Virus record (IMG/VR): IMGVR_UViG_2547132519_000001
Coordinates: 1 to 64,000 of that record
Length of the DNA: 64,000 bases
Reading direction: 5' to 3' (one strand)
DNA from: a virus
Taxonomy: Duplodnaviria; Caudoviricetes
A program made the translations under genes and the position numbers. The notes under the pieces are model-generated. The model made no database searches. It saw only the letters and a list, made by a program, of their open reading frames with translations, and was not told the DNA's origin. Shown here piece after piece: positions 11,330 to 50,846 of the stretch; the first letter of the stretch is position 1; every line of letters begins with the position of its first letter.

Positions 11330-11345
11330 TTGTTCACCATCCTTT

Positions 11346-11369
11346 TAAGGGACTCTTATTAGAGTCCCC
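11346..11369 (-). terminator. Hairpin downstream of tape-measure stop
   Basis: GGGACTCT-AATA-AGAGTCCC perfect stem; weak U-tract. Confidence 0.45.
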
Positions 11370-11371
11370 AA

Positions 11372-14300
11372 TTATCTTATTCCTGACTGTTGAATTATTG
11401 CTCTCTTTAATCCTCCGCTTAATATTCCATTTGCCAAGCCCTCAGTATCGTTACACTCTTGTATGTTAATGTTACCAAATTTAAACTCTTGTGTAGTAAT
11501 ATTAGGACGATTTGGAGAGAAAGTAGAGTAGTCTGTTTTAGACGGAGTGATTTTCCAAGCAGTAGCTAAGTTTTTAAGTAGAGTATCTTGCTGTTCTGGA
11601 TTAAACACTGCCTCATTTCTATGAAGGATCGCAGAAATTTCATCTTGATCCATCTTCTTTAGGCCAAGTAACTTCATCTTTGCTTCACGGTCAGAGGTGG
11701 ACGATGTACCAACCAACCCATTCTCTATGCCGTTTTTATATGCTTTGCCACCTACACCTGGGCCACTATTTACGTATCCTGAACTATCTTTACGAAACGG
11801 AGCACCATCTTCATCGTCGTCATCGTCTTCACTTGCGTTTTCGAGATTATCCCTTACCTCTTCCAGAACATCAAGCATAGACGCTACATTGTCTGTAAGT
11901 TGCTGCCAGCTTGAAGTGTACTCAGATATTATTCCGGCATTTTGATTATACTGTTTAAATGAGTCTATAAGTTCAGTAGCTGTATTAGCAAGCCCTTGCT
12001 TTATACCAGAAAGAACATTTTCTGCATTGGCAGCCGTACCATTCATTGCACCTAGATAATCATAGATGTTCTGCAAATTACCTTCAGCTGACATGGTTTG
12101 ATTCATTTGAGCCAATAGATTATTTATGCCGGTTAAAGCCTGATCGTAGGAGAGTGTACCTTCTTTGTAAGAGCTGATATAATCCTCCAATAGAGAATAG
12201 ATATTGTTGGTATTATTAATCTGCTCTTGATACTGCCTCAATTGTTCTGCCGTATTTGCGTACATACCAGAGAAGTTATTAAATAGCTCCACATCTTTTC
12301 CAGATAGAACTTTATCCTTCCAACCAACTCCAAGTAAATCATTGGCTTTTGCTTCATTCTGTGCCTGAGTTATTTTTTCGCTAATTTCAGACCACTTATC
12401 AGATATTTTTTGTAAAGAGTCAATCTGATCCTGGTATTTATCATTTAATCCATCAAGAGTTTCCTGTAATTCATCAATCTGAGTCTGGATTTTATCGGTT
12501 TCCATATCAAATTTTGCACTTTGAACTGCTTCTTGGGCATCTCGAAGTTTGTCTGCATTCTGTTCATAGACAACCTGTCCATCGCGGATTACTTTTTCAG
12601 TTGCCTGTTGATTTGCTTTTTGGAGATTGTAAAGGGCCTGTTCGTATTTTAGCTGTAACTGTAGCTCTTTATTTTGCTTATTCATTAAGTCTAGCTTATC
12701 TTGCAAGGCTTTTTTCTGAGCATTATATTCCTCATTTACAGCATCTTTCTGCTCGTTAATGGCATCGATCTGCTCTTTGATGGCTCCGGTTACGGCACTA
12801 ATAACCGTATCGTATTCTTCTTTAACTCCACTCAGTCCATCAGTAACTTTCTGTAGCTCAGAAGAATAATTGTTGATATTGTCAAGTGGCATCTTTAATA
12901 ACTCTTCATTCCACTTTTTGAGATTTTGTACCATAGATGACATCTCAGAATTAACAGACTGTAACTGACCATATAATTCATTCCACCGAGTGGAACCTTT
13001 TTCTTGCTCATCCATTACATTCTTAATTTCAGAAGCCAAATCCTGATACTGATCAATAGTAGTAGCACCGTTAGAAATCAAAGTCTGGTAATAATCAGCG
13101 CTAAGTTTACCACCTGTTGCTGAAGCCACATCACCCCATTTTTCAATTGCAGAAGAAATATCTTTGTACATAGAAACTATAGTATTTAGATTATCAATAG
13201 GCATTTGCTCTAATGCCTGATTGATTTCTTCCTGCTCAATTCTCAGTCCTTGTATTTCATTCTTTGCAGCTTTTACTTTTGCCTGTAATTCCTTGTAGTC
13301 TTTTGATTTGACAGAAACCTTTGCTGCCCTAAGATCAGCCATTTCAGATTCCCATTCAGCAATATCTTGTTCGTTACCAGATATCAAACCCTTATTATTA
13401 TTTTTTTGTTGCTTATAGAAATCTGCATCAATAATTTCTCCGCGCGCTTCCATAAGTTCCATTTGTGACTTGATAATCTTATTGGATTGCTCTAGCTTTT
13501 CGTTTTCAGTATTAATTGCGCTGATTCTATTCTCATGGAGATCCTTAATAGTTTTAATATGTTCTGTTTCGCCGTCAGCCAATTGCTTTTGAGATGCTTT
13601 CAATTTTTCATTTGCGTCGATTGCCGTTTGGACTTTTTTTCCTAAATCGCTTGGTAAAGATTCAATTTCAATTCCACCATTTTCAATCTTATCTTTGTAC
13701 TCAGATGGGATAGCCTTTAGAGCATCTGCATAAGCTTTTGAATACGCTTCGACTTCTTGCTGATATTGTGGTAGCAATGTCTCTGTCTGCATTTTAAGCA
13801 TACCTTGTAATGCATTTTCTTTTGATGCGCCGGGAGCACCAGATTGAATCATTGTGTATAATTCGCCAAGACTTAATCCTGCTTTATCAGCATAACTTTG
13901 TAACTCAGACAGACCTTCGAATGTATTACCAAGACCATTATCAAAAATTGATTTTGCTTTATCAAATTGCTCTTGTGTTAACCCAAGGTATGCAACAGTA
14001 TCCTTATTAGCCAGTTCCTCAAGCTTAGAATACTCATCTTGCATTAATTTAGTTTTGCGAGCAATCCAGTCAACTTCATTTTGAGAGTCTTCTTTTTTCT
14101 TTTTATCTGAACCTGAACCAGCTTTATTAGATTTATTAGCTCCTGCGTAGTTTGCGCTGGCACCTTTACCTTGGTAATTACGAGATGTATTTATGGCATC
14201 TTGTACTTGTTTATCAGCGTCAGCTTTAAGTTTGTCCATCTTTTCTTGATATGCATTTAACTGATTATCAATTGCCATAGACATTCCAAGTCCGGTTCTC

Positions 14301-16531
14301 TGGGATAGAAGGTTATCTAAATTGGCTTTTTGTGTGTTAGCGTCAAAAATATCGCCAGCTTTGGCTTTATTATAAGCTACAAGAGCACTAGTCGCTGAAC
14401 CAATCGTATTAATTAGTGCTATTGCATTCTCAATGTCACCACTCGTATCTAAGATTGTACCGTTTGCATTAGCTTTTTCCAACGCAAGACCAGCAAGTGC
14501 TACTTTTGCAATATCACTTTGAGTTGCTTCATCAATTAGCCCTGGTATTTCGCTTGCTGTAGCATTAGCAAGTGTGTCACTCATTTCTGCTGTATACGCC
14601 TTTTGTGCTGCTAACTGTTCTTGTGTGAAAGCAAGTCTAGATGCCACAACCTCTTCGGCGTTAGCAACACCCATATTTTTTAGCATTGAGGAAATTAAAT
14701 TAGTGTTTTCTTCTGTATAATCGTTTAGTGCGAGTTTACTATCAATCCATGCAGTAGTCAAATCATCAAAAGCTGATTGTGCACCCTTTATGTCCTTGGG
14801 AGAGTCAGATATCGTTTCGATAAAATTGGTATATGATTCACCTAGTTCACCAAAGCTGTCCTTGAAATTTTTATCATCTAATAAGGCGAAGTCAAATGGA
14901 TTCTTGCCCTTCATACTACTCATTATTTTATCCAAGGACTCAAAACCTTCTGAAAGAGAATTTACATTTGATATTACTTCTTCTTTAGATATAGCTAAAG
15001 ATTTTTGACCTGAGTCGCCAACATCACCTTGTACAATATTTAATTTTATTAATTGATCTATGACTTGATCAACTGATAAACCATACTTATCTGCGGCAGC
15101 TTTTAATTTATTAAATACATCATTATTTTCAGCATCATCCATAGCTAGTATATCTTCTTTAGATTTTCCTCGTAAAGATCCTACTATGGTCATGAGATTA
15201 TCTTTATTAGAATTAAGGTCGTCTGCAAAATCATATATACCTGTGTCAGCCTGATTAAATACTTCATTCATAACACTGGCATATTTCTTCCAGTCGGAAC
15301 TGGTTAAATCTATAGTATCTTTAACTTTATTAAGATCATCTCTTGCAGATAAAATCTTCTTTTCATCTCCAGAAGCAATGGCATCATTATATTTTTTAAC
15401 AGCGCTTGTAGCATCACTATACCCTACCGATAATTTGTCGCTCGTAGCTATTTGTGCCACCAATGCTTTATTATAAGTGTCTCCATAATCAGCAATTAAG
15501 TCTTTGGTTTGATTGAGAGACGAACTTGATATGCCAAGAACAGATTTTATGATAGGATCTTTTTCACCATATTTTTCTTTTAAGCTGTCAACGTAGGTCA
15601 TAAAATCATTGATTGCCTTATTAGCTTCAGTGGGGTCAGCACTAAGTCTCAAAGAAAAGGTGCCAGTAGGTGCATATACATCGGGATTTTCTAAATTTAA
15701 TTCATCCTTGTGTGATCTGGCATAGTCAAAGATTGCTTTTCCTGAACCGGAGAACATACCAATATCCTGAGCCACCATGTAGGTTTTCTTTTTAGTCATT
15801 TTCTTTTGAGCTTTATCAATTGTATCTACATTCTCATTTAAATACTTTTGGGCAGCAATTTTATTTAGTTGCCTGATTGCCTCTGTTTGATCTTTATATG
15901 CATCTGTCACAAGATTAAGCCGACCATATTCGTCTCCATATTTCTCATTGAGTTCTTGCTGAAGGGAGAGGAGATCACTCTTTATTTTATGTTGTTCTTC
16001 TTCTGACGTATTGGCATTTGTTAATTCATCATGTAATTTTGAATATCTATTTGCATAATCATCTATAGAACTTGAAACTTCGCCATATGCTTGCGCTGCT
16101 TCGGCAGTTGCTTGTCGAGCTTCTTCAACAGATTGTTTATACTTACTCCATATACCAATACCAGCAGTTACGGCCATTCCAATTAGAAGTAACGGGTTTG
16201 CCATCATTGTAGCCCAGAGACCTTTTAATGCAGATGTAAAACCAGCGGTAGAGAAGCTTGCGCCCTTTTGAGCAGTAGACAATGATGATGTATTAATTGC
16301 AGCTTCAAGTTCTGCCTTACTTAAACCAGAAACTGTAGTTTTTACACCATTTGCATTTTTCTCGAATATTGTCCCAGATAGTATCAATTCTAACTGTGAT
16401 TGTTTTAACTTTCCGCTAGACAATACGCATTTCTGCATACTTAAATCCAATGAATTAAAATAACTCGCTATATTACTACCACTATTTAATTTGCCTAACA
16501 CATTTGAAAGATTTCCGAGGTCTTTAAGTTG
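11372..16531 (-). CDS. Tape measure protein, 3' exon (1,719 codons)
   Basis: Long helical/coiled-coil ORF with ALKGLWATMMANPLLLIG; no Shine-Dalgarno before the TTG at 16534; in frame with the 5' exon after splicing. Confidence 0.88.
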   Translation of the reverse strand, partial: QLKDLGNLSNVLGKLNSGSNIASYFNSLDLSMQKCVLSSGKLKQSQLELILSGTIFEKNANGVKTTVSGLSKAELEAAINTSSLSTAQKGASFSTAGFTSALKGLWATMMANPLLLIGMAVTAGIGIWSKYKQSVEEARQATAEAAQAYGEVSSSIDDYANRYSKLHDELTNANTSEEEQHKIKSDLLSLQQELNEKYGDEYGRLNLVTDAYKDQTEAIRQLNKIAAQKYLNENVDTIDKAQKKMTKKKTYMVAQDIGMFSGSGKAIFDYARSHKDELNLENPDVYAPTGTFSLRLSADPTEANKAINDFMTYVDSLKEKYGEKDPIIKSVLGISSSSLNQTKDLIADYGDTYNKALVAQIATSDKLSVGYSDATSAVKKYNDAIASGDEKKILSARDDLNKVKDTIDLTSSDWKKYASVMNEVFNQADTGIYDFADDLNSNKDNLMTIVGSLRGKSKEDILAMDDAENNDVFNKLKAAADKYGLSVDQVIDQLIKLNIVQGDVGDSGQKSLAISKEEVISNVNSLSEGFESLDKIMSSMKGKNPFDFALLDDKNFKDSFGELGESYTNFIETISDSPKDIKGAQSAFDDLTTAWIDSKLALNDYTEENTNLISSMLKNMGVANAEEVVASRLAFTQEQLAAQKAYTAEMSDTLANATASEIPGLIDEATQSDIAKVALAGLALEKANANGTILDTSGDIENAIALINTIGSATSALVAYNKAKAGDIFDANTQKANLDNLLSQRTGLGMSMAIDNQLNAYQEKMDKLKADADKQVQDAINTSRNYQGKGASANYAGANKSNKAGSGSDKKKKEDSQNEVDWIARKTKLMQDEYSKLEELANKDTVAYLGLTQEQFDKAKSIFDNGLGNTFEGLSELQSYADKAGLSLGELYTMIQSGAPGASKENALQGMLKMQTETLLPQYQQEVEAYSKAYADALKAIPSEYKDKIENGGIEIESLPSDLGKKVQTAIDANEKLKASQKQLADGETEHIKTIKDLHENRISAINTENEKLEQSNKIIKSQMELMEARGEIIDADFYKQQKNNNKGLISGNEQDIAEWESEMADLRAAKVSVKSKDYKELQAKVKAAKNEIQGLRIEQEEINQALEQMPIDNLNTIVSMYKDISSAIEKWGDVASATGGKLSADYYQTLISNGATTIDQYQDLASEIKNVMDEQEKGSTRWNELYGQLQSVNSEMSSMVQNLKKWNEELLKMPLDNINNYSSELQKVTDGLSGVKEEYDTVISAVTGAIKEQIDAINEQKDAVNEEYNAQKKALQDKLDLMNKQNKELQLQLKYEQALYNLQKANQQATEKVIRDGQVVYEQNADKLRDAQEAVQSAKFDMETDKIQTQIDELQETLDGLNDKYQDQIDSLQKISDKWSEISEKITQAQNEAKANDLLGVGWKDKVLSGKDVELFNNFSGMYANTAEQLRQYQEQINNTNNIYSLLEDYISSYKEGTLSYDQALTGINNLLAQMNQTMSAEGNLQNIYDYLGAMNGTAANAENVLSGIKQGLANTATELIDSFKQYNQNAGIISEYTSSWQQLTDNVASMLDVLEEVRDNLENASEDDDDDEDGAPFRKDSSGYVNSGPGVGGKAYKNGIENGLVGTSSTSDREAKMKLLGLKKMDQDEISAILHRNEAVFNPEQQDTLLKNLATAWKITPSKTDYSTFSPNRPNITTQEFKFGNINIQECNDTEGLANGILSGGLKRAIIQQSGIR

Positions 16532-16557
16532 CAATTAAATTAATTAGTAAGTATAAT
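16529..16557 (+). promoter_or_regulatory. Sigma70/SigA promoter for zinc-ribbon gene, overlapping the 3' splice site
   Basis: TTGCAA (16529-16534), 17-bp spacer, TATAAT (16552-16557). Confidence 0.7.
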
Positions 16558-16577
16558 ATATTCAATATAAAAAATTC

Positions 16578-16994
16578 TTGGAGGAGAAAAATATGGCGCT
16601 AATTGAATGTCCTGAATGTGGAAAGCAGGTTAGTGATACTGCAAACGCTTGTCCTAATTGTGGGTATGATATAAAGAGTTTTGTTGAGTATTGCCCACAT
16701 TGTGAATTACTTGATAAAGAAAAGATACTAATGAGTTTTTCAAGAGATCAAAACGTATACACTTGCCCAAAGTGTAACAGAACAATGGGTGTTGCTTCTC
16801 CAGAAGCAGAAGCTAATTGGGCAGCACAGAGACAAATGGAACAAAATCTTCCCAAATGTCCATATTGTAGTTCTACCAATTTGAAGAAAATTTCTGGTCT
16901 ATCTAAAGCTGGTAGTGTAGCTTTGTGGGGTGTTTTTGCCATGGGTAAAGTAAGCAAGCAATGGCATTGTAATAGTTGTAAATCAGATTTTTAA
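16578..16994 (+). CDS. Zinc-ribbon protein with hydrophobic segment (true start probably ATG 16593)
   Basis: Six CxxC pairs; GGAGGAG RBS before MALIECPECG. Confidence 0.85.
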   Translation: MEEKNMALIECPECGKQVSDTANACPNCGYDIKSFVEYCPHCELLDKEKILMSFSRDQNVYTCPKCNRTMGVASPEAEANWAAQRQMEQNLPKCPYCSSTNLKKISGLSKAGSVALWGVFAMGKVSKQWHCNSCKSDF

Positions 16995-17091
16995 TTTATA
17001 TGATAATTCAATCTATCTGAAGTAAATTAACTTTGCTTAATTCATCTATTTCATTTTGTAGTTTATTTATATTTTTATCTAAAGTTAAGTT

Positions 17092-17134
17092 ATAAAACAA
17101 AAAAGGCCTTATTTAAGACCTTTTTTTGTTTTAT
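17092..17134 (-). terminator. Intrinsic terminator inside the intron (bidirectional, stronger on minus strand)
   Basis: Minus RNA AGGUCUUA-AA-UAAGGCCU-UUUUU within a longer inverted repeat, between convergent genes. Confidence 0.75.
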
Positions 17135-17140
17135 AATATT

Positions 17141-18034
17141 TTATTCGATTTCACTATTTAAATTATCAAATGTCTCCGATCTAACCATTTCTGAGCTTCC
17201 ATCAGCGGACGACATACAATGATATGCTTGATTGTTAGTCATTAATATGAAGCTTATGATGGTTTTCTTATCATAGTATGTACTATTTCCTTCCACAGCA
17301 AAACTCAACATTTTTCTTTCGCCAGGACTGATAGTTATGGAGTCTAAATTTATTACCGATGTTGATCCTGCTTCTACAAGTTTTAAATCGCGATTTAAAT
17401 TACTATAATCATGATTATATAATTTGGCGAATTCACTGTATATAATTACATCATTGTCACTATTATTTTTATATTCCATTACTATGTATTTGGCATTGGG
17501 GTTAGTTTTGGTGTTCATGTATACCTTATACTTAGGTATATTATTTGTCTTGTTAACCCTTGCTCCGTCATCACCATAATAAGCGCTGTCCTTAGCATAG
17601 CAATTACGTAGCATATATCCATCTGTACCTACCCAGTACCATTTTCCATTGACTTTAAGATCTGTATTTTTCGGGTATGAGCCATCTGCATACTGATACC
17701 ACCAACCATTTTCATCTTGTCTCCAGCCGTCAGAATTATAAATAGAAGAGTACATATCATTATTTAAACTGTGTCCCATGATTGCTCCGTCGGAATCAGT
17801 TTGATACCCGTTAAATAACTGTGTATTAGGCAATAAGTATCCATCTTGGTTAGTGTAATATAATTTCCCTTCCTTTATGAAAAAACTACAAGTTGGGTAC
17901 GTTCCATCGTTATATCTATACCATGTTCCAACATTATCTGTTGCCCAAGCCCCCATATATACTGTTGCATAAGAAACTATTGTACAATTAAAAATAAATA
18001 ACATAAAAATAAAGCTAGTTAGTATCTTTTTCAT
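17141..18034 (-). CDS. Secreted protein with cell-wall (choline-binding-type) repeats
   Basis: Signal peptide; GWRQDENGWWYQYADGSY and KWYWVGTDGYM repeats. Confidence 0.85.
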   Translation of the reverse strand: MKKILTSFIFMLFIFNCTIVSYATVYMGAWATDNVGTWYRYNDGTYPTCSFFIKEGKLYYTNQDGYLLPNTQLFNGYQTDSDGAIMGHSLNNDMYSSIYNSDGWRQDENGWWYQYADGSYPKNTDLKVNGKWYWVGTDGYMLRNCYAKDSAYYGDDGARVNKTNNIPKYKVYMNTKTNPNAKYIVMEYKNNSDNDVIIYSEFAKLYNHDYSNLNRDLKLVEAGSTSVINLDSITISPGERKMLSFAVEGNSTYYDKKTIISFILMTNNQAYHCMSSADGSSEMVRSETFDNLNSEIE

Positions 18035-18088
18035 GTAATTTACTCCTTTATCTCTTTCATTTAATAGGATCTACTCTCTGGCGTTCAA

Positions 18089-18775
18089 TTATTCCTCTAT
18101 GTGAAAACGATACAATTTCTTAGCCGGGATTATCCGATAGTATGAATTAACGAAAGAATCGCAGCTAACTGTGAAGTTTAAGGTTGTATTTTCATTGACG
18201 GAAAATTGCTGATATTTACCTACCATAAATATGAAGTCAGTACCTTGGCTGTTTGCTGGAACTATACCATAATCGCAAGGTGTAAAGGTATTCGTATCAT
18301 ACATGAGCAATTTTTTTATCATTCCGTCAGTGTTTACTTCAACAACTGGATCTATAACAATATCCTCTTTCCCTTCATTTATAAATCTACACAGTATTAA
18401 ATCACTAGTTTTTTCTTTTGATCCAGTGGCCCACACAACACTAAAATTTAGACCAGGTGTATTATCTTCAAGTACTCGTCCATCTGCGTCAACTCTGTAT
18501 CCCTCTGGAGTTGTCCAATTATAGGTTAAGCTACCATCAGTGTATAAGTAATGCTTTATGCCATTAACCTCAATAAGTCCGGTTTGCATATATCCATTAG
18601 AATCGAAGTGATATTTTTCTTCGCCAATGGTTAACCAATCGTTCTTAACATAACTACCATCATCATTCTGATACCACCAACCCACACCATCCTGTTTCCA
18701 TTCTCCAGCAAATGATACAATCGTACTGCTTATAGCAATAGTCGCTGACATTAGTAACACAAGTAACTTTCTCAT
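18089..18775 (-). CDS. Secreted protein with cell-wall (choline-binding-type) repeats
   Basis: Signal peptide ending SFA; GEWKQDGVGWWYQNDDGSY, YHFDSNGYMQTG. Confidence 0.85.
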   Translation of the reverse strand: MRKLLVLLMSATIAISSTIVSFAGEWKQDGVGWWYQNDDGSYVKNDWLTIGEEKYHFDSNGYMQTGLIEVNGIKHYLYTDGSLTYNWTTPEGYRVDADGRVLEDNTPGLNFSVVWATGSKEKTSDLILCRFINEGKEDIVIDPVVEVNTDGMIKKLLMYDTNTFTPCDYGIVPANSQGTDFIFMVGKYQQFSVNENTTLNFTVSCDSFVNSYYRIIPAKKLYRFHIEE

Positions 18776-18804
18776 ACAAATCCCTCCTGTAAGCTGTTTT
18801 ATGT

Positions 18805-18813
18805 ATTATAACA
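18805..18813 (-). promoter_or_regulatory. Extended -10 promoter for the cell-wall-binding genes
   Basis: TG-T-TATAAT about 30 nt upstream of the ATG at 18775. Confidence 0.55.
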
Positions 18814-18864
18814 TGGAGAGAGTATTAATTCTATAAAAAGAGAAATTTAAGTATTGGATTTAAA

Positions 18865-19332
18865 CTATGATAACTCTAAACGCTCATATAATTCACATAA
18901 AGCTACTTGGACATTCGTGACTCGATCACTTACTTCGCTAATAGTGATAGGTTTTAAACCATCATTAGAAGGAAACTTTGAAATTAATTCATCAATTTCC
19001 ATCTTTTTAGTATCATCTAACTCATAGTGATATTTGGTTTCATAAGTAATTTTATCTACTGGCTCTATATCGATATAATCAACCATTTCTGTGTTGAATT
19101 CACCAGTTTCAATTTCTGACTCATCTAAAATGGGAATTTTAATTTCTCTTTGTTTTTTGACCTCTTCATTGACTGTTATTTTGTTCTCAATTACTTCTGA
19201 TACAATCTTATATGCAGTGTAATAAATCTGTTCACCTTCTGGTAAATTTTCCATTGGGATCGAATTATCAAGATCACCAACTAAACAATAATTACCTGTT
19301 AAATAATTATTGCTATCTATCTGAACTTTCAT
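18865..19332 (-). CDS. Hypothetical protein following tail fibres (possible assembly chaperone)
   Basis: 155-aa acidic ORF with GGAGG RBS; C-terminal VQVALCELYE. Confidence 0.7.
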   Translation of the reverse strand: MKVQIDSNNYLTGNYCLVGDLDNSIPMENLPEGEQIYYTAYKIVSEVIENKITVNEEVKKQREIKIPILDESEIETGEFNTEMVDYIDIEPVDKITYETKYHYELDDTKKMEIDELISKFPSNDGLKPITISEVSDRVTNVQVALCELYERLELS

Positions 19333-19344
19333 GTTAAAATCCTC

Positions 19345-20928
19345 CTATGATTGATACGTTTTATATTTGATACCTACGACTTTTGTTATATGAGATTGGG
19401 TTTGACTGATAGAGAGACTGGTATGTGTTGAGGTAACAGGAAGAATGTTAGTATAAGCAGGAGAAGTCTGATACCCAAAAAGACATGATATATAAGTATT
19501 AGTTGGCTTTAAATCTATAAGTGGTATTATCTCATCTTTAGAAATTTCCTTATAATCATAATGTTTTGCCGATACATTATTTATACTATAAAAATAAACT
19601 CCCAACTTATCATAATTGTTTATAGAATCTAATAAATTAATTGTATTAGAAACTGCCGTAGTACCATCTGTTCCTATATTGCCTTCAAATAATACTGTTT
19701 CTTCTATTAAGCCTTGAATAGACATGAAATATGTAGGTTCATACTTTATACAAAATAAAACAGCAGTATTCGTGGGTCTGGAGGTGTATACTGTTGGTTG
19801 ATTTATAAACCCGCTAGTGGTTATCCATCTGTTTGATCCGCCTATTTGGGAAATATATATACCTTTAGAGCTGTTAATTGTATTATCAATATTACTAGGT
19901 GCAGCTCCTCCTGTAGTTAAATTTGATCCAATCCAAAAATCATTAAGATTGGCATTTGTTGAAGTATAAAGATAAGGATATATTGTACCACTTTGATGTA
20001 CACCGATCTCCTCAGATAATTTTTCTACTTTATCTCCATGGTAGCCCCGTATAAACTCATTTCTCAAATCTGGCAAAGCAAAGGTCGCGGTTCCATCTCC
20101 GCCAAAGAAGTTAAAAGTGCCAAACTGATCCTTTATATATTGAGATAGGTGTGGATAGTCTGTAATATTGTGAACAGAACCATCGCAAACGAGATAGTGG
20201 CTCGGTGCTGTCTTACCCATTACAGATATAATATTACCAACTGGGGTATCCTCAATGCCTTGGGTAGTGTTAATATAATTTACTGGGTCGATAGTAACGC
20301 TTTCTATGTTTATTCCTTTAATAGAAGTTATGGATACCTTGTCTACCTGTGAGATACTAAAAGGATTATTGACCCCGTCTATATGTATTACAGTAGGAGA
20401 CTTAAACCACGCTCTTATACTCATATGTGCTCCACCCCAAGAGTTAGTAACACTTGTTGTAACGTTATCCATTAAAAAAAGAACTGACCCATCTGACGGA
20501 GAATATGTATTTGTATTATTGTAAACTATTTCAGTAACATTGAGCATATTTAATTCTGACTTAAATTTATAAGTGGAATCTACAGCAAATTGAACACTAA
20601 TTATATTATAGTTTTCTATGCTTTCTTTTAATGGAATATCTATATTAATTGATGTAAAGACAGGAGAACCGTTATTTGCTGGAATTGTAACAGGAAAAGT
20701 AAATGTAGAACTCAATAATTCCTTGATTCCTCTCGTATTTACAGTTTTCTGTGCTATACTTATATCATCCATAGTTTTTACTGCATCTTGTAATCCAGTA
20801 ATAGCTGATATTGGATGTGAATCCTCAGCATCTCTTCCAGGAATAGAATTATGAGTACCTGCTATAGTTTTAACAAATTTTTTAACACTATCAACTGTAA
20901 CACCTAAATTTGTTTTATTGATTCCTAT
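19345..20928 (-). CDS. Tail-collar fibre paralog 3 (frame extends 52 codons upstream of 20772 to an ATA)
   Basis: Tail collar motif PVGNII...YLVCDG...FALPDLRNEFIRG; extension IGINKTNLG...HPISAITGLQ matches paralog 2; RBS GAGGTGAG. Confidence 0.8.
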   Translation of the reverse strand: MGINKTNLGVTVDSVKKFVKTIAGTHNSIPGRDAEDSHPISAITGLQDAVKTMDDISIAQKTVNTRGIKELLSSTFTFPVTIPANNGSPVFTSINIDIPLKESIENYNIISVQFAVDSTYKFKSELNMLNVTEIVYNNTNTYSPSDGSVLFLMDNVTTSVTNSWGGAHMSIRAWFKSPTVIHIDGVNNPFSISQVDKVSITSIKGINIESVTIDPVNYINTTQGIEDTPVGNIISVMGKTAPSHYLVCDGSVHNITDYPHLSQYIKDQFGTFNFFGGDGTATFALPDLRNEFIRGYHGDKVEKLSEEIGVHQSGTIYPYLYTSTNANLNDFWIGSNLTTGGAAPSNIDNTINSSKGIYISQIGGSNRWITTSGFINQPTVYTSRPTNTAVLFCIKYEPTYFMSIQGLIEETVLFEGNIGTDGTTAVSNTINLLDSINNYDKLGVYFYSINNVSAKHYDYKEISKDEIIPLIDLKPTNTYISCLFGYQTSPAYTNILPVTSTHTSLSISQTQSHITKVVGIKYKTYQS

Positions 20929-22189
20929 TTAACTCACCTCCTTAGTTTTGAAAAGTTTTATATTTAATACCTGTTATTTTAGTTACATATGATTGATACA
21001 TTAAGAAATTTAAGTTTGAATAACTAGAAGTTTTTTCTATATCCGCAAAACTGATATGCGGACTTTGCCCCCAGTTAAGAGTTAGATGGGTATCAGGTTG
21101 CAATGATTCTATTAAATCTTTAAATCTTTTTGATGGAAAAGAATTATAATCAAGTCTTACTGCCGTACCTATAGAAGCTTGATAATAAAAACCTATTTCA
21201 TCATATTCCAAAACAGAAGTGGTTAAACTTATAGACCGCGATACTTGAGTTGTACCGTTTGTTCCCACAAGTCCCTCCCATAGAATAGTATCTTCTATAA
21301 GACCTTGTATAGACATAAAATATGTAGGTTCGTATTTAATACAATACAATACCGCTATGTTGGTTGGCCTGGCTGTGTATTTACCAATTCCGGTTGAAGA
21401 CCAATTCTGAGCTGAGGAGTTTACAAGCCACCCTGTATTATTTGTTCCTTGTATTATCGAATCCATATTGCTTGGAAATTGATCTGCGGAATTATAATTT
21501 GAGGTAAAAGCGACTTTAGAGTTACCTGTATATAAAAAAATATTTTCAGTAGGATTTTGATGAATGCCAATCTCACCAGATAATTTCTCAGTTTTACTTG
21601 CATGATATCCACGTAAAAACTCATTTCTTAAATCAGGTACTGCAAAGGTAGAAGTACCGTCACCACCAAAGTAATTAAAGCTTCCAAATTCAATTTTAAT
21701 ATGTTGAGCTAAAAATGGATAATCTGTTATATTATAAATAGCCCCATCACATGTGAGATAGTGAGATGGAGGGGTCGTACCCATATATGAAAGTATATGT
21801 CCTACAGGTGCATCTTCTATGCCCTTATCGGAATTTACGTATTCAACTGGATCTACTATTGTTTTTTCCATTTCTAATATATTCAGATATGATGTATTTT
21901 GAAGTTTTGCTCCTGTTTGAGTTCCTCCTATAACTGTTACTTTTATACCAACTTTAATATCTGTTTTTGGTGTAATAACGCAAAAAGATGGTAATATTGC
22001 TTGATTTATAGTAAGCGCAACATAATCTACCGTCGTGCTAATTGACTTTTTTTGCTGTAAAATAAGGACAGTTGGAGTAATTCACTCTAAGTTCTGTTCT
22101 TGAACAACAAAGGTTGTAGCATTTCACTGCTATTTTACTTCAAACTTTTGTATCATTTTACTCCATATTTTCTTGGAGGATTTTAAAAT

Positions 22190-22555
22190 ATGACAAAAGC
22201 TCAAAAAGATGAATACTGGATGGATTGCATCCAGCAGTGCCGCGTAAGCGGCTTATCTGATTACGCCTGGTGCAGTCAGAATGGTATACCTACCAGCTCT
22301 TTTTATTACAATATAAAGCGGCTGAGGAAGAAAGCCTCTATGATTCCTGACTCTGTTCCAAAAGTTCTAGAGAAAACAGAAGTTGTACCAATTCACTACA
22401 ACGAACTGCAAGAAACAAAAGCAGTTCTTCCTAAAAAACAAACGGATCGGATTGCAATCCATCTGGAATACAATGGCTTTGTTTTGGCTATCAGTAACAA
22501 TGCAGATGCCGCCATTATTACAGCAACATTAAATGCGTTGCGACAACTGTGCTAG
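22190..22555 (+). CDS. tnpA: IS66 accessory protein TnpA
   Basis: SGLS..AWC..NGI..SSFYY HTH; first IS66 ORF. Confidence 0.88.
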   Translation: MTKAQKDEYWMDCIQQCRVSGLSDYAWCSQNGIPTSSFYYNIKRLRKKASMIPDSVPKVLEKTEVVPIHYNELQETKAVLPKKQTDRIAIHLEYNGFVLAISNNADAAIITATLNALRQLC

Positions 22556-22902
22556 GTGATCTCTCCGGCGTGGCAAAGATATTTCTTGTGGCCGGCTACA
22601 CCGATATGAGGCGTAGCATAGACGGTCTTATGGCAATTGTCCGGGATACCTATGAGTTAGATCCTTTCAGTAATTCCCTTTTTCTTTTCTGCGGAAAAAG
22701 ATGCGACAGACTGAAGGCACTGCATTTTGACAAAGATGGTTTTGTGTTACTTTATAAACGGTTAGATTCCGGCCGTTTCCAGTGGCCACGTAATTCAGAA
22801 GATGTTAGAAATTTGACCAGACAGGAATTCCGTTGGCTTATGGAAGGTCTTTCTATTGAGCAGCCAAAGGCAATTAAACCCGTTGCCAAAAAGCCCTTTT
22901 AA
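22549..22902 (+). CDS. tnpB: IS66 accessory protein TnpB
   Basis: TDMRRSIDGL, LFLFCG, DGFVLLYKRL..GRFQWP. Confidence 0.93.
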   Translation: MLGDLSGVAKIFLVAGYTDMRRSIDGLMAIVRDTYELDPFSNSLFLFCGKRCDRLKALHFDKDGFVLLYKRLDSGRFQWPRNSEDVRNLTRQEFRWLMEGLSIEQPKAIKPVAKKPF

Positions 22903-22990
22903 GCATCTGATAAAGTACACGCAGAACCGCTTATTTACTGGCTTTGCGGTCTCCTTTGTGGTATAATAAGTATATCATTCAAGGAGGTAC

Positions 22991-24592
22991 ATGGTCATGA
23001 AAAAGTCTGTTGAAACCGAAGATCTTAACATGAATCTGCTGGTCAGTAATCTGCTCAAACAGCTGGAAGCAAAAGATCATCAGATGGAACAATTAAACCA
23101 GACCATTGCAAACCTCACGGAAACAATTAATGAACTGAAACGAAAAATCTTTGGTATTTCCAGTGAGAAATCATCGAACTTACCTTACATTGACGGACAA
23201 CTCAGCTTGTTCGATCAGTTGGGAATTGATGAACACGTTCACGAACCGGAAATGATCAATGTGACAGCGCATGAGAAGAAAAAATCCCGTGCTACGCATG
23301 ATGAACTTACAAAAAATGTACCGATAAGGACCATTGAGCTTTTACTGGAAGGTGATTCTCGTAACTGCCCTTACTGTAATACTAAAATGGAAGATATCGG
23401 CTCCAAAGTTGTTCGTGAAGAGATTCATATCACTCCAGCAAAAGTGGAACGTGTCCAATACGTACAGCATAGCTATGCATGTCCACAGTGCCGTGAAGAT
23501 GGTGATTCAACCATTGAGAAGGCACCTGTGCCAAAGCCACTCATCAATCACAGTATGGCTTCTGCTACAGCGGTCTCTTACATCATGTATCAGAAGTGTA
23601 CGAACTATCTTCCGTTTTATCGTCAGGAGCAGGATTGGGCACAGCTGGGAGTCAAGCTGAATCGTGGAACCATTGCCAGCTGGTTCAATACATGCGCAGA
23701 AGAATATCTGGAACCCGTTTATGAGAGATATCATGAGTATCTTCTTAGGCAGTCCGTCATTCATGTAGACGAGACGACATGCCAGGTTTTGAATGAAGAT
23801 GGCAAGACTCCAGAATCAAAGTCTTACATATGGTTGTACACCAGCGGTGCATTTGAAGAGCACCGGATTGTGCTTTACGAGTATCAACCATCAAGGGGCG
23901 GCTATCATGCAGCAAAGTTCCTTGCTGATTATCACGGGTTTGTCCATACGGACGGCTTCAGCGGATACAACCGTTTGAGTGACATTACCCGATGCGGGTG
24001 CTGGGCACATCTTCGAAGATATATGTTCGAAGCGATTCCCAAGAAGAAGGGATCATGCTCCGAAAAATCTGAAGCCTACACAGGCTATTCCTACTGCAAC
24101 CAACTCTTTCAGATAGAGAAAGAACTGAAAGACTTAGAACCAGAAGAGCGACAGAAAAAGCGTCTTGAACTGGAGCGACCTGTACTGGATGCATTCTGGA
24201 AGTGGGTGAATGGGATAAATGCCCTTGGCGGATCAAAGCTTGCCAAGGCAATTAACTATGCCCAAAACCAAAAATCGTATATGGAGAATTACCTCCTTGA
24301 TGGAAGATGCTCCATTAGTAATAACGCAGCTGAAAGAGCCGTGAAATCATATGTTATGGGAAGAAAAAACTTCCTCTTTCATGACACTGTAAAAGGTGCC
24401 AAAGCAAGTGCAATTGTTTACACGCTTGCAGAAACAGCCAAAGCAAATGGATTAAACATCCGTCTTTATCTGGAAACAGTTATGACTAAGATGCTGGACT
24501 ACAAAAATGAGCCCGATAGTATCCTGGAAGAACTGATGCCTTGGTCAGAAGCAATGCAAAAATCCTGTGGCTTGAATAAAGGTACTATTTGA
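22991..24592 (+). CDS. tnpC: IS66 DDE transposase TnpC
   Basis: Coiled coil, zinc finger, HVDET, HTDGFSGY, CWAHLRR, SNNAAER. Confidence 0.95.
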   Translation: MVMKKSVETEDLNMNLLVSNLLKQLEAKDHQMEQLNQTIANLTETINELKRKIFGISSEKSSNLPYIDGQLSLFDQLGIDEHVHEPEMINVTAHEKKKSRATHDELTKNVPIRTIELLLEGDSRNCPYCNTKMEDIGSKVVREEIHITPAKVERVQYVQHSYACPQCREDGDSTIEKAPVPKPLINHSMASATAVSYIMYQKCTNYLPFYRQEQDWAQLGVKLNRGTIASWFNTCAEEYLEPVYERYHEYLLRQSVIHVDETTCQVLNEDGKTPESKSYIWLYTSGAFEEHRIVLYEYQPSRGGYHAAKFLADYHGFVHTDGFSGYNRLSDITRCGCWAHLRRYMFEAIPKKKGSCSEKSEAYTGYSYCNQLFQIEKELKDLEPEERQKKRLELERPVLDAFWKWVNGINALGGSKLAKAINYAQNQKSYMENYLLDGRCSISNNAAERAVKSYVMGRKNFLFHDTVKGAKASAIVYTLAETAKANGLNIRLYLETVMTKMLDYKNEPDSILEELMPWSEAMQKSCGLNKGTI

Positions 24593-25110
24593 TTTTTCGA
24601 GAGGTGAAAAATCCAGAAAGATCAATACACTTCTTTATGTAGCGCTTACGATTTATACCATTAGCACATTCACAAACTCCTGCTTTACCAATTACTTTAG
24701 AATTTGTATAATCATATAAACAATAATACATATAGCCTTGGTAAGATATTAGTCTTACCAGGGCTTCTATATTGTAAGTGACATTGGCCTTTAATGTATA
24801 TAATTTAGTAGTTTGATCATAATCAATACCATTATTTACTATTGGAATAAATGGTATTAATAAATTCACTACAGGAGTATAATCTAATGCATCTGTAACA
24901 CTTGATAAACATTGAGAAAGCTTTTGATTTACAGTTCTCTGTGCAACATTAATATCATTAACCTTATTTATTTCGTTTTGCAATCCGGTAATAGCTGATA
25001 TAGGATGAGCATCGATATCATCTCTCCCGGTAATCGCGTTATGAACGCTGGGAATTTTACCTGTAATAAAGCTTTTAATGCTTTCAATCGAAATACCTAA
25101 ATTTGTTTTA

Positions 25111-27504
25111 CTAATTCCCATTTAATATACCCTCCACAAATTCTTTGATTTCTGAATCGGTATATGTGGTATCGTCTCCTCCACCTGTTGAAGAAGTTGA
25201 TCGGTATCTAATTCCAATAACTTTATCTAACCGAGATTGATATTGATTTAAATCTAATCTATGGCTGGTAGAAGTTTTTTGTATATCTGTATAATCAATT
25301 ACATTAGAGTATCCCCAAACTAGCGAAATAGAATGATTTATATTTGTACTATTTTGGCATTCAATGATTTGACTAGGGTATATCTCCTTATATTGTGGAC
25401 GTAAAGAACCATCTGATCTTGTACAAGTGAAGAGAAAACCTAATTTATCATAATTTGTAAAAGAGTCTTTTAAGCTAATTGAATTCGATACAGCTGTTGC
25501 CTTGGTGGTTCCGACGTTACCTTCCCATAACACAACCTCATCCACTAAACCATTAATATTCATAAAGTATGTAGGTTCATATTTAATACAATAAAGTACA
25601 GCAGTGTTCGTAGGACGAGATGTATATAGTTTATTACCTCCACCAGCCCAGTTAGACACAGATCCATTATTAGACCATCCTCTAACCACAGTGGATTTAA
25701 TTAAATTGTCTGGATTTTGAGTAGACAAATATTTTCCATATTCTCCATCCATATATATTCTAGAATTCCCATCAACTAAAAAATTTATATGTTGAGTTCC
25801 GCTTTGATGAATTCCAATTTCTCCAGATAACGGTTCGGTTTTATCTCCATGATAACCACGAAGAAATTCATCTCTTAAATCTGGTACAGCAAATGTGTTA
25901 GTACCATCTCCTCCAAAAAAATTGAATGTTCCAAATTGGTCTTTAATATGTTGAGAAAGATATGGGTAATCTGTGATATTATAAGATTGACCATCACAAG
26001 TGAGGTAATGCTTAGGTGAAGTTTTGCCCATCTGTGGTAGAATACTGCCAACTGGAGTGTCCTCTATGCCTTGTGTGGTATTCACATAATTTACAGGATC
26101 AATGGTGACGTTTTCAATATTAACTCCTTGCACAGATGATAGCACAACATTAGCCCAATCTGTTGCTGTAGATGGAGTGCTTGCATTAAATAAAAATAAA
26201 TGAGTTGCATCTTTAAACCAGAAACTAAAAGACGCACTAAAGCTGCCCCATGCTCCTGCTGTTGTAGTTCCTTGTATTTTATTAACATTCATGGCAGAAC
26301 CATTAGTAAAATTTAAAACCTCAGAATTATTAAAAACTATACTAGATGTTTTAAATGTATAAATAGGATAAGAAATTTTAACAGTATTGGTGTTTACTTT
26401 TAGTTGAATGTTAATCATATCATAATTAAGAATACTATCTTTAAGCGTAATTGTCTGATTTATTGCTGTAAGATTGGCCGTCCCCATGGTTAAAGCTGGA
26501 GTTAGATTAAACGAATATTCTTGACTCAATAGTTCTTTAGTGCCTTTCGTATTTACCGTTTTTTGCGCTATGCTAATACCATTAGTAAGTTCCTCAACTA
26601 CAGCTATATCATATGATATTTTAGTACTGCTCCATGTTTTTGATAATGAAGTTACGCTATCATCTATAACTTCAGAAGTGCCTCCAACGGCACTCAACAC
26701 ACCATTACTATCTACAAATGTGGTTGAATTATCAGGCTTAACACCACCAAGTACATTAGGAGAAGCACTTGGAAGGGTGTAGTTATTTAATCCGGCAAGT
26801 TTCGACTTTTCGTCAGTAGAAAAATTATTTTGAGATAATCCATATCCTGAAACTTTATCTACTTTATTATTTAAAAATGAGTCTGTTTCTACTTTTGAGT
26901 AATAATTGGTTAAATCAATATCTGTGGTACCTATATTTGCCCATTCGTTGTTTATGTAAAGCCACTGGTTGTACGAATTTTTATCGATTTCCTTTTGTAA
27001 GTACATAGTTGTTGCTGAGATATTTTCTGATGGAAGAATCTCTATTACCTCAATAGTCATTGAATTTAAATTTGCAATTAATGAATTAATCTCGGTCTTT
27101 GTATAAGATTCCATCTTACTATAATAGTTCATTAAGTTTGAAGCAGATATTGTAATAAAATCTGAATCGTTAGTTAATTGAGAAATTAGTGTAGGTATTT
27201 TTGGTTTGTCCTTTAAATCATTATAGCTTCCTGTGGAAGCAGCATCAGAAAATCCTAACTGTTTGGATGTTATATTCCCTACCAATTCCACTCCATTGAT
27301 TACCGGCCTGTTATAAAGAGATTCGTAATCACTTGCGCTTCCAGAAACAGTTTTATAAGTTCCATCGTCAAATAACGCTTTGTTTCCTTCGCCATCAGAA
27401 GTAAGCTTTTGAATATTTTCTTTTTGATCTGAGGTGATAATTTCCTCAGCAACTTTGTCTGTATAACTCTTACCCGCGGCTAGAGTTGTTAAATCAATTC
27501 CCAT
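25111..27504 (-). CDS. Tail-collar fibre paralog 1 (797 aa)
   Basis: ASTGSYNDLKDKPKIPT and LPSASPNVLGGVK fibre motifs; collar PVGSIL...LTCDG...FAVPDLRDEFLRG. Confidence 0.85.
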   Translation of the reverse strand: MGIDLTTLAAGKSYTDKVAEEIITSDQKENIQKLTSDGEGNKALFDDGTYKTVSGSASDYESLYNRPVINGVELVGNITSKQLGFSDAASTGSYNDLKDKPKIPTLISQLTNDSDFITISASNLMNYYSKMESYTKTEINSLIANLNSMTIEVIEILPSENISATTMYLQKEIDKNSYNQWLYINNEWANIGTTDIDLTNYYSKVETDSFLNNKVDKVSGYGLSQNNFSTDEKSKLAGLNNYTLPSASPNVLGGVKPDNSTTFVDSNGVLSAVGGTSEVIDDSVTSLSKTWSSTKISYDIAVVEELTNGISIAQKTVNTKGTKELLSQEYSFNLTPALTMGTANLTAINQTITLKDSILNYDMINIQLKVNTNTVKISYPIYTFKTSSIVFNNSEVLNFTNGSAMNVNKIQGTTTAGAWGSFSASFSFWFKDATHLFLFNASTPSTATDWANVVLSSVQGVNIENVTIDPVNYVNTTQGIEDTPVGSILPQMGKTSPKHYLTCDGQSYNITDYPYLSQHIKDQFGTFNFFGGDGTNTFAVPDLRDEFLRGYHGDKTEPLSGEIGIHQSGTQHINFLVDGNSRIYMDGEYGKYLSTQNPDNLIKSTVVRGWSNNGSVSNWAGGGNKLYTSRPTNTAVLYCIKYEPTYFMNINGLVDEVVLWEGNVGTTKATAVSNSISLKDSFTNYDKLGFLFTCTRSDGSLRPQYKEIYPSQIIECQNSTNINHSISLVWGYSNVIDYTDIQKTSTSHRLDLNQYQSRLDKVIGIRYRSTSSTGGGDDTTYTDSEIKEFVEGILNGN

Positions 27505-27559
27505 TTATTATGTTTCACCTATATCTTTCTGGTTTATGATATTTTAAAGGTAAGTTAGT

Positions 27560-28005
27560 CTTCATATCTTATACACGTTGGAACATGCATTAACAGCATA
27601 TGAAATATGGCTTTCATGTACTGCGAGGAATGGTGCTCTCTGAACATTCCCTATCATTAATGACTTTACCCCAACATTGCTTACGCAATTGCTACTATTG
27701 GATTATCTGTCATGACTGTACGTAGATAGGGTTAGCTGCTTCGTTAGTGATTGTAAATCTGTCGGGAATTATGTTTTATCCCTAGAAAACTCACTCCGGT
27801 GTGTTAACCGTTTGACTTATTTGCCTTATTTTTCGGCTTCTCCAAATAGGAGAGTAGTGAGTATTACACTTTCAAGCAATTAATCCTCTTTTTATTTTAA
27901 AACTTTCATCTCTAGGAATTGTTGTGTCGCCATTATGACATTTCCTTCCCCTAGATAGGCCGACTTAAATCCTCGGAAATTTAAGTAACTCGTTTTACAG
28001 AGTTA
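27560..28005 (-). ncRNA. Group I ribozyme core (P1-P9 5' strand)
   Basis: P element AAUUGCUUGAAAG (27881-27869), Q CGAAGCAGC (27743-27735), R GUUCAGAGAGCA (27645-27634), S AAUGCAUGUUCC (27591-27580); P3, P4, P6a, P7, P8 all pair. Confidence 0.9.
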
Positions 28006-30042
28006 ACCGTAGTTTTTTACAAATGATGTGATACCTGCACCAGTTAAAAGCGTTGACAGCACTCCAAAATTCTTTATAACTCCATCTAAGCCACTGGATA
28101 GTGCAGTGCTAGAATCAACAAGGATTTTTAAGAAATCAGAGTTTAAGACAGTTAAAGAAAGTGATTGGAATGAGGCTTCAAATTGCTTGGTCTTTGCATC
28201 TAATGATTCCATCCATCTTTCTTGTTCTTGCTGAGCACTCCCAGCAGAGTTTAATGATTCCTGGAGAGCCTTTCCAACTTGTCCAGATTGAAACGACTGT
28301 AAAAGCGCCATAACTTGGTTACCGCGCTGTTTTCCTGCTATAATTTCCAGCAAGTCTGCTTGTTTAGTTTGACTAATATGATCCCATACTTCTGAAATTC
28401 CTTTAATAATTTCATATGTAGACTTAAAATTACCTTTGTCATCGAAAATATTAACTGCTCCATCAGTACGATTTAAGATTTGAGTCTGTATTTTTGATAT
28501 AGACTCAACGTTTTCGTATTCTTCCCCTAACTCCTCTAGGTTACCTTTCATCCCACGAACACGCATACTTAATACTTTTAAAGTATTTCCCATTTCAGAA
28601 GCGTCTTGTATAATCTCTGAGCCACCAGTTAGCATGGCTAATGTCTGATTAATATCATTTCCAGCCGATTGAAGAGCAGAAGCGGAGTTTTTTAAACCGG
28701 TACCTAAACCTGCGGAATCAACTGCAAATTTGTTTCCTAAAGCATTAAGCGAGTCAACAATATTAATACTATTTGAAGCTTCAATATTAAAAGCTTTCAT
28801 TGCGGTTACTAAATCGGAGACAGCCGTTTTGTCATCAACTTCTCCAACATTCGCATATATAGATGATATTTTAGCTAGTTCAGACGATTCATCTATGTCA
28901 TATCCTAATTTTGCCCAATCAGCCGTCTGCTCTACTAATCCAGATATAGTTCTGCCTAAGTCTTTGGCGTTTTTCTTTGCACCATTTAAGAATTGGGCGT
29001 ATTTGTAATCTGTCTCGTCCGTAACTTTATAAAGATTAGTCATCGCTGTATCTACTTCGTAAACTGACTGATACATCTTATGGAAAGAGTTTGCTCCAGC
29101 CATAATGACGGATGTTATAGACAACCATGAGGTGAACTTAGATCCTGCATCTTTAATTGAGTCCGTAAATGATTTCCCTAACAGCCCGGCCTCTCTTGCG
29201 GAGATTTGAATTCTCATAAATTCAGCTTCGATCTTTTTCAATTCTGGTACCGTCAAATCGTCTGCTGATTTTAGTTTTTCTACCAACTGATTTATATCAG
29301 AGCCGTACTTCTTACTAGCTTTAGAATTGTTTTCCATCCACGTAACTATGTTGCCAGCTTTTGTTAGACGTTGTGTTTCGGAAGCAAAACCTTTAAAATT
29401 AGCTGTTAGGTCTTTGAGTCGATTATTTACTTTTGAATACTCTACATCTAGACTTTTTGCATTAGCAATTAAAGAACTACTGTCGGGGTTTGCTTTTAGT
29501 TTCTCGAATGCAAGATTAACATTTAGTAATTCTTTTTGTATTTGATCTGCCGATAAACCGAGCTGCCGAAAAGATGCAGTCATTGTTGATATTTTTGACT
29601 CGTTCTTTCCAACATCTATTGCCTGGGAAATTTTCGATGCTGAAGCAGCTGCCTTATCTGCTTCTATAGATTCGCGTCTATACATATCAGCCATTTGCTG
29701 TAGCTCTGATGATTTTGACCCAATTGACTGATATGTACTTTTTCTTAAGTCTGCAAAAGATTGTTCAACAATCTTATTTTTTTTAACAACTTTCTTTGCT
29801 TGATCTTCATAAGCTTTAAATATGTCGTTTCCATTTAACTTTGTACCAAATGTTTTATTAAAATCACTTGCTATCTCTTGAGATACTGCTTTCAATTGAT
29901 TGCGGAGAGAAGCGGTTTTTAATTCAGGAATAATATCAATTGAATATTTATTGATAATATTTTGGACTTCCTTCAATTCTGTATTTATACCTGATTTGTC
30001 TAATACTGTCTGTAATAGAACTTTAAAATCAGTATTTGCCAT
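28006..30042 (-). CDS. Tape measure protein, 5' exon (TP901-type core, 679 codons)
   Basis: VDTAMTNLYKVT, MGNTLKVLSMRVRG, FKSTYEII, IAGKQRGN; GAAAGGAG RBS before MANTDF at 30042; ends ...NYG then in-frame TAA as first intron bases. Confidence 0.9.
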
Positions 30043-30091
30043 TACGTTTCTCCTTTCAATGCATAAAAAAAGAACGGAGTTACCGTTCAAA

Positions 30092-50773: not shown

Positions 50774-50846
50774 CTGGCCAAGTAGGAATTGAACCCACGA
50801 CACTTTGCTTAACAGGCAAATGCTCTACCAACTGAGCTATTGGTCA
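50774..50846 (-). tRNA. tRNA-Asn(GTT)
   Basis: TGACCAATAGCTCAGTTGGTAGAGCATTTGCCT-GTT-AAGCAAAGTGTCGTGGGTTCAATTCCTACTTGGCCAG; one A-C mismatch in the acceptor stem; no encoded CCA. Confidence 0.92.

Follow-up and report, generated by a model that had tools for sequence, protein, structure and literature searches.

The 64,000-nt stretch of viral DNA analysed here (the window) carries a tape-measure gene that is split in two on the minus strand. The ORFs 28003-30090 (695 aa) and 11372-16534 match consecutive parts of the tape-measure profile phrog_4211, and the gap between them amounts to 11.5 kb. Exon 1 (28006..30090, minus strand, 695 codons) matches phrog_4211 positions 557-948 (E 1e-83) and PF10145, while exon 2 (11372..16531, minus strand, 1,719 codons plus the stop) matches positions 955-1674 of the same profile. 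Joined in silico, the two give a frame that is open over 2,414 aa. The gene runs uninterrupted across the site in 5 relatives (L008, L023, L029, L030 and L035), and in 4 of these single alignments with the joined protein cross residue 695. In many of 34 related viral loci, the tape measure stops at the same residue and resumes 1.1-5.4 kb downstream. No Shine-Dalgarno sequence or ribosome-binding site was found before exon 2 when the upstream sequence was read directly, so that exon 2 could not be translated by itself. A tblastn search with the start of exon 2 gave no match among phages.

The interruption itself (16532..28005, minus strand, 11,474 nt) starts with an in-frame TAA and ends with a G. 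An RNA of ~470 nt that follows the exon 1 stop shows 68-88% nucleotide identity in relatives, and is conserved even where the flanking protein is only ~33% identical. The ribozyme core, taken with the last 3 exon nucleotides, occupies 27580..28008 (minus strand), with a set of covarying helices running from P1 to P8. The elements recognised are P1, a P1 extension, a hairpin carrying a P10 guide, P2, P3, P4, P5/P5a-c, P6/P6a-c, P7, P8 and an L2-L8 loop-loop contact. RNAalifold found compensatory changes in 34 of 71 pairs in an alignment of 12 sequences. With 22 sequences and the full fold, 92.8% of 2,127 cells were paired (vs. 80.2% in shuffles) and 67 of 101 pairs were changed on both sides (vs. 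38.7 in shuffles). Neither value was reached in any of 500 shuffles, and controls with slid partners were 38-44% paired. By helix, pairing was 98% for P3, 94% for P4, 100% for P5, 70% for P6 (where the alignment is poor), 99% for P7 and 98.5% for P8, with compensatory changes in all six; the helices follow the canonical order and P3 and P7 cross. P1 is formed by the guide and the last three bases of the exon, of which the final U is opposite a G in 22/22 sequences; the middle pair takes four forms (AU 14, CG 3, GC 3, GU 2). A G-C pair beside a one-base bulge in P7 is also invariant (22/22), a geometry that fits the guanosine-binding site. In the window, the core helices are intact apart from one C-A mismatch in P8.

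A terminal G marks the 3′ splice site; it is present in 6/6 mapped tails and in 3 more that were read by eye (L009, L024, L026); the mapping of terminal G and size leaves out L012, whose 3′ junction was not located. Except for this final G, the 3′ tails of the introns are not conserved. The P10 guide, formed by the loop and 3′ arm of the second hairpin (27963..27980, minus strand), is complementary to nucleotides 3-9 and 12-21 of exon 2 (16529-16523 and 16520-16511). L004 has 21 contiguous pairs, L014 has 15 and L013 has 11; the window and L002 each have one run of 10 and one of 7. The guide covaries with exon 2, the sequences differing among window/L002, L004/L014 and L013. The L2-L8 contact pairs 27929-27933 with 27607-27611 in the window (minus strand); three of its pairs are invariant or compensated, with one G-C to A-U exchange in L024, and the outer two are broken in 8-10 of the 22 sequences. 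After P7, where P9 is expected, the window sequence is no more stable than its shuffles (z 0.45), and that of L011 is strongly structured (z -4.3).

Judged by sequence and covariation, the interruption is a group I intron, predicted to splice, of a lineage undetected by the Rfam model RF00028. This model gave a partial match of 10.9 bits in the window that was not significant (gathering score 50), no match at E <= 10 in 20 relatives and none at the gathering score in 8 loci. A search of the whole window with Rfam at gathering scores did not detect the intron, and blastn with its core found no match among deposited phages. A group II intron, a bridge-RNA/IS110-type element and an omega-RNA-type element were each considered and rejected, there being no matching protein genes and the fold being that of group I.

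A profile search with the intron RNA yielded 45 matches at E <= 1e-5, 27 of them distinct, all in related viral loci. These 27 intron variants in IMG/VR (loci L002-L092) always occupy the same tape-measure codon and range from ~0.9 to 11.5 kb. The mapped lengths are 1,124 nt (L011), 4,416 nt (L002), 5,453 nt (L014), 5,702 nt (L004), 7,108 nt (L013) and 11,474 nt (window); those of L009, L024 and L026 are ~0.9-1.0 kb by reading. It should be noted that the tape measure also stops near residue 695 in many other relatives (L016-L022 and L025) that lack the intron RNA, so other elements may use the same site. Further recurrent interruptions occur at about residues 452/453 and 511/512 (L014/L015, ~10640-11927; L030; L032-L034; L001). 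L001, which is Thomasclavelia phage TR-TP1, has two annotated HNH endonuclease genes between its tape-measure pieces. Skipping-rope RNAs (RF02924) scored above the gathering score in L024 (7000-7066, plus strand) and L064 (1-75, minus strand), in both cases no more than a few kb away from the gene for the tape measure.

The arrangement in the window is not an assembly artefact. The probable source run gave contigs that continue without a gap over 15800-22036 and 24621-28400 and break only at an IS66-type element whose depth is ~4 times that of its flanks, showing it to be multicopy in the source genome. Another metagenome sample contains an IS-less joint, 22002|24650, with 8 shared bases at the joint. 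Unbroken contigs on either side of a multicopy IS, together with a joint lacking it, led us to reject an artefact.

The cargo of the intron lies 3′ of the core. The smallest relatives have nothing behind the core except an antisense zinc-ribbon gene and a short tail; in the window, an extra 10.4 kb separates the core from this gene. The antisense gene (16593..16994, plus strand) has its ATG at 16593 and a strong ribosome-binding site at 16580-16586. A promoter-like site upstream of it (16529..16557, plus strand, 10/12 matches) has as its -35 hexamer a palindrome that spans the 3′ splice junction, as it also does in L002. The gene adjoins the 3′ splice site in most relatives (16554-16841 in L004, 11665-11961 in L009, 11862-12191 in L011, 11669-12082 in L024 and 11671-11994 in L026). 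Some of the encoded proteins have a common conserved C-terminal end, and no nuclease domain was found in them; homing and regulation are conceivable roles. A helix brackets the antisense ORF in L024, L026 and L009 (equalled in 1, 4 and 10 of 300 shuffles, respectively), a counterpart of which was not detectable in the window.

On the sense strand, two secreted-protein genes (18775-18089 and 18034-17141; unit 17141..18775, minus strand) encode cell-wall/choline-binding repeats (PF01473 and endolysin-type binding-repeat PHROGs), with N-terminal signal-like segments in the translations. Direct reading revealed an extended -10 promoter element at 18805..18813 (minus strand), consisting of TG, one base and a perfect -10 hexamer, ~30 nt upstream of the ATG at 18775; the promoter scan missed it because its -35 is poor. 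Further sense cargo extends over 18865..27504. It includes a small ORF (18865-19332, minus strand) and tail-collar fibre genes at 25111-27504, at 19345-20772 and, cut by the IS, at 24585-25121 + 20942-21871 (all minus strand; PF07484 Collar in three ORFs). The IS66-family element (22011..24649, plus strand), inserted in the cut fibre gene, has three ORFs that we take to be of IS66 type. Relatives' cargo introns hold unrelated genes in both orientations (for example L014, or 14767-16515, plus strand, in L004); from the impression given by its N-terminus, a 582-aa cargo ORF in L004 may be a defence-type nuclease.

Between the secreted-protein genes and the antisense gene lies a hairpin. The first-pass annotation had reported a hairpin and U-tract at 17092-17134 on the tape-measure strand, and both of our approaches recovered it: a consensus scan found a minus-strand terminator-like site with a stem of 12 pairs (17126-17099), a loop of 4 and a T-rich tail, and the minus strand of 17085-17145 folds as one hairpin, 17136-17090. 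It has a core stem containing G-C pairs, extended by pairing of an A-run with a U-run, and further U's on the 3′ side. Its free energy is -19.5 kcal/mol, compared to -5.06 +/- 1.98 for dinucleotide shuffles (z -7.29), and none of 200 shuffles was as stable. Hairpin and U-tract end ~555-567 nt upstream of G16532, in agreement with the ~560 nt originally given for the distance to the 3′ splice site. The profile matches, the relatives and the joined frame likewise bear out that the hairpin is inside the intron, on the sense strand of the tape-measure gene.

The hairpin starts 14 nt past the stop codon of the minus-strand ORF 17141-18034 and lies ~100 nt past that of the plus-strand ORF 16578/16593-16994. 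Terminator-like sites on both strands of 12000-24000 number 7, vs. 5.9 +/- 2.5 expected; with no excess over chance, the case for a terminator rests on energy and placement rather than on counts. What distinguishes the hairpin at 17090-17136 is its energy, its position behind ORF 17141-18034 and its symmetry, the stem being flanked by an A-tract and a U-tract, which indicates a terminator acting in both directions. A stable G-C hairpin followed directly by a U-tract, just past a stop codon, is what is expected of an intrinsic terminator. Sub-threshold Rfam matches of the hairpin (E <= 10) were to several families of sRNAs that end in terminators and were treated as meaningless. From its fold and placement, we conclude that the hairpin (17090..17136, minus strand) is a genuine bidirectional intrinsic terminator, and RNA 3′ ends are predicted there. 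Promoter, two genes and hairpin make up a promoter-gene-terminator unit, the hairpin being the common end of this unit and of the antisense gene. By sequence, the secreted-protein unit is a classical moron. In two other samples, similarity to the moron genes ends at 17120 and at 17089, i.e. at the hairpin.

The presence of a terminator inside the tape-measure intron means that a full-length tape measure would need read-through, followed by cis-splicing. The first-pass annotation had invoked a YonO-like enzyme for this purpose, and the window indeed encodes one: a YonO-family single-chain RNA polymerase gene (51467..54214, minus strand) matches phrog_8308 (E 3e-249; 1-901 of 915 aa covered) and is 46% identical to yonO of SPBc2 (SPbeta), with 85% of the protein aligned. 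A tRNA gene (50774-50846, minus strand) lies between an exonuclease gene (49027-50169) and the polymerase gene. The available passages of PMC5467207 describe the SPbeta late genes as a single operon transcribed by YonO, an enzyme that pauses little, and state that hairpin-dependent pausing and termination require the flap domain of multi-subunit RNA polymerases. On the strength of these passages, low pausing and the missing flap suggest that YonO would be insensitive to terminators. The gene in the window thus makes the read-through idea plausible.

Profile searches found phrog_8308 in the records of 5/5 intron-bearing relatives and the YonO family in 5/5 relatives with an uninterrupted gene. 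The polymerase is therefore a trait of the clade, and its co-occurrence with the intron says nothing specific. A single-protein search had given 2 weak matches in 5; the apparent scarcity was rejected as a problem of sensitivity in light of the 5/5 seen with the profile. Convincing sense-strand terminator-like sites occur in 3 of the 5 cargo introns scanned (present in the window, L002 and L004; absent from L013 and L014). Further upstream in the late region, terminator-like hairpins on the sense strand also occupy intergenic positions (~33099, 31800 and 30753, minus strand), so late transcription must pass several such sites anyway. A strong sense-strand hairpin at ~4255 (minus strand, -21 kcal/mol) probably ends the tail-gene block.

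We propose, as a somewhat probable account, that the hairpin is a bidirectional terminator closing two convergent cargo units within a group I intron, and that read-through by the YonO-type polymerase and cis-splicing produce the tape measure during lytic growth. Both units, in the 3′ part of the 11.5-kb intron, would be self-contained: the sense moron combines two secreted-protein genes with an extended -10 promoter of its own, and the promoter of the antisense zinc-ribbon gene overlaps the 3′ splice junction. In the lysogen, we infer that host RNA polymerase starting at the moron promoter would stop at the hairpin, so that transcription from this promoter would reach neither the 3′ splice site nor the tail genes. 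In lytic growth, the late transcript would have to pass the hairpin and reach exon 2, most likely by means of the YonO-family enzyme of the phage. From the 5′ end of the intron, the ribozyme core would then find the distant 3′ splice site via its unusually long P10, and the exons would be joined in cis. The earlier idea that the cargo is expressed only in the lysogen suits the two secreted-protein genes, given the extended -10 promoter in front of them; it does not extend to the upstream sense genes for tail fibres, which would ride on the late transcript and for which no separate promoter was noticed.

Read-through could also be achieved without YonO, by host polymerase under the control of a phage antiterminator or because the terminator is leaky, again followed by cis-splicing. 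Late operons of the lambda Q type can accommodate promoter-gene-terminator inserts in this way, being transcribed by antiterminated host polymerase. The late region of the window has several other terminator-like hairpins, and the passages of PMC5467207 available contain no terminator assay with YonO. The window does, however, encode a YonO-family polymerase, and no antiterminator gene was recognised in passing; we give this alternative a low probability.

We attach a comparably low probability to the idea that the copy is crippled, with transcription ending at the hairpin or splicing over 11.5 kb failing, such that only the 695-aa N-terminal piece is made and no infectious particles are formed. 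The record is a provirus with a CheckV completeness of 82% and its cargo contains an IS66 element, so some prophage decay is possible. The P9 region is weak and the intron is the largest of those mapped (11,474 nt vs. 7,108 nt in L013). Against this, all core helices are intact in the window, the P8 mismatch aside, and both exons have remained open over their 2,414 codons. Moreover, multi-kb cargo introns are also found in relatives with a completeness rating of 94-100%, among them L004, which has a sense-strand terminator.

Trans-splicing would make read-through unnecessary. A 5′ RNA comprising exon 1, the core and the cargo down to the hairpin would be joined via P10 to a 3′ RNA starting somewhere in 17090-16532. 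The whole catalytic core is indeed in the 5′ part, the terminator separates the two halves, and P10 is unusually long (10 + 7 pairs in the window and up to 21 contiguous pairs in L004). The trans model had been put forward on the basis of long P10 and P9 pairings. The long P10 is real, but equally present in introns of ~0.9-1.1 kb that have neither cargo nor terminator and must splice in cis. The P9-type pairing was not confirmed: the stretch after P7 and the last 70 nt of the intron do not pair clearly beyond shuffles (23 of 300), and their exact runs are only 10-12 nt and A/U-rich. The 3′ tails are not conserved except for the final G. The sole sense promoter-like site in the gap has 9/12 matches, in a scan that yields 56 sites vs. 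52.2 in shuffles. We consider trans-splicing unlikely, and decidedly so. Finally, it is very improbable that the hairpin has no terminator function and is due to chance or to folding of the intron RNA, for while terminator-like sites in the region are no more numerous than in shuffles (7 vs. 5.9), this one has a z of -7.29 with 0/200 shuffles as stable, sits exactly between two convergent stop codons with the A-tract/U-tract symmetry typical of bidirectional terminators, and is missing at the same place in the introns of relatives, with contigs of other samples diverging there.

Phage group I introns such as those in td, nrdB and sunY of T4, bnrdE and bnrdF of SPbeta, and in Twort typically carry homing-endonuclease ORFs and measure ~0.25-1.3 kb. 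[quoted passage not shown] It differs in its size of 11.5 kb in the window, in having no recognisable homing endonuclease but an antisense zinc-ribbon gene instead, in a cargo made up of fibre genes, a promoter-gene-terminator unit and an IS, and in escaping detection by RF00028.

Morons in the late operons of temperate phages are promoter-gene-terminator units that are read through by antiterminated polymerase. The secreted-protein unit is similar in that it is autonomous, has its own promoter and terminator, is predicted to be expressed in the prophage and lies within late structural genes. In contrast to other morons, it is located inside an intron, and the late polymerase is probably of the YonO type. 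Because of this embedding, read-through would be required not only for downstream genes but also to complete one protein. The new point is that the moron terminator sits between a ribozyme and its splice site.

The IStrons CdISt1 and BcISt1, as presented in the available portions of PMC4227781, also have a 5′ ribozyme with foreign DNA downstream of the core, close to the 3′ end, and a 3′ splice site distant from the core. By comparison with these portions, the window cargo lacks an IS200/IS605 element, the insertion is at one fixed tape-measure codon, and the core lacks the P7.1/P7.2 hairpins of an IA2-type core, P8 starting one base after P3′. No IS200/IS605 transposase or TnpB was found among the cargo ORFs with PHROGs and Pfam, which returned fibre, binding-repeat, zinc-ribbon and IS66-type matches. 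In the mitochondria of mushroom corals, the ND5-717 group I intron is 18-19 kb long, has genes in P8 and, in a circular genome, is removed by back-splicing from a small permuted transcript, according to the parts of PMC6545197 available. Set beside these parts of the account, the window intron is similar in having ordinary genes inside a group I intron of >10 kb, and different in that its cargo is 3′ of the core and that nothing suggests a permuted transcript. Within the accessible parts of the literature, this coral intron was the only published group I intron of comparable size that we found, and no cargo-carrying group I intron was described for a phage tape-measure gene in the open-access literature searched.

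If splicing works, no bacterial or phage group I intron known to us would come near the one in the window in size, and complete transcription units with sense-strand terminators would lie between a ribozyme and its 3′ splice site. This raises two testable questions, namely whether YonO-class polymerases ignore intrinsic terminators, and how a group I ribozyme chooses a splice site at a distance of 11 kb. The tape-measure intron is also a candidate site for the swapping of fibre genes and lysogen-expressed genes while leaving an essential gene unharmed. More tentatively, the tape-measure introns of YonO-encoding SPbeta-like phages could constitute a distinct, Rfam-invisible group I lineage of cargo bays, in which autonomous genes amounting to 1 to >10 kb build up between the core and a 3′ splice site held by a P10 of 15-21 bp. 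Such loads might be tolerable only because the late polymerase ignores hairpin terminators, in which case cargo capacity and polymerase would be functionally linked. Among the cargo would then be fibres for receptor binding, secreted proteins made in the lysogen, antisense units and candidate defence genes, along with promoters and terminators on the sense strand.

At one end of the window, a Ku-like gene is paired with an ATP-dependent ligase gene (984-2683, plus strand). In several Bacillus SPbeta-like phages (H29 and others), the annotation of yonO itself is split in two by a small gene, which suggests an intron in the polymerase gene.
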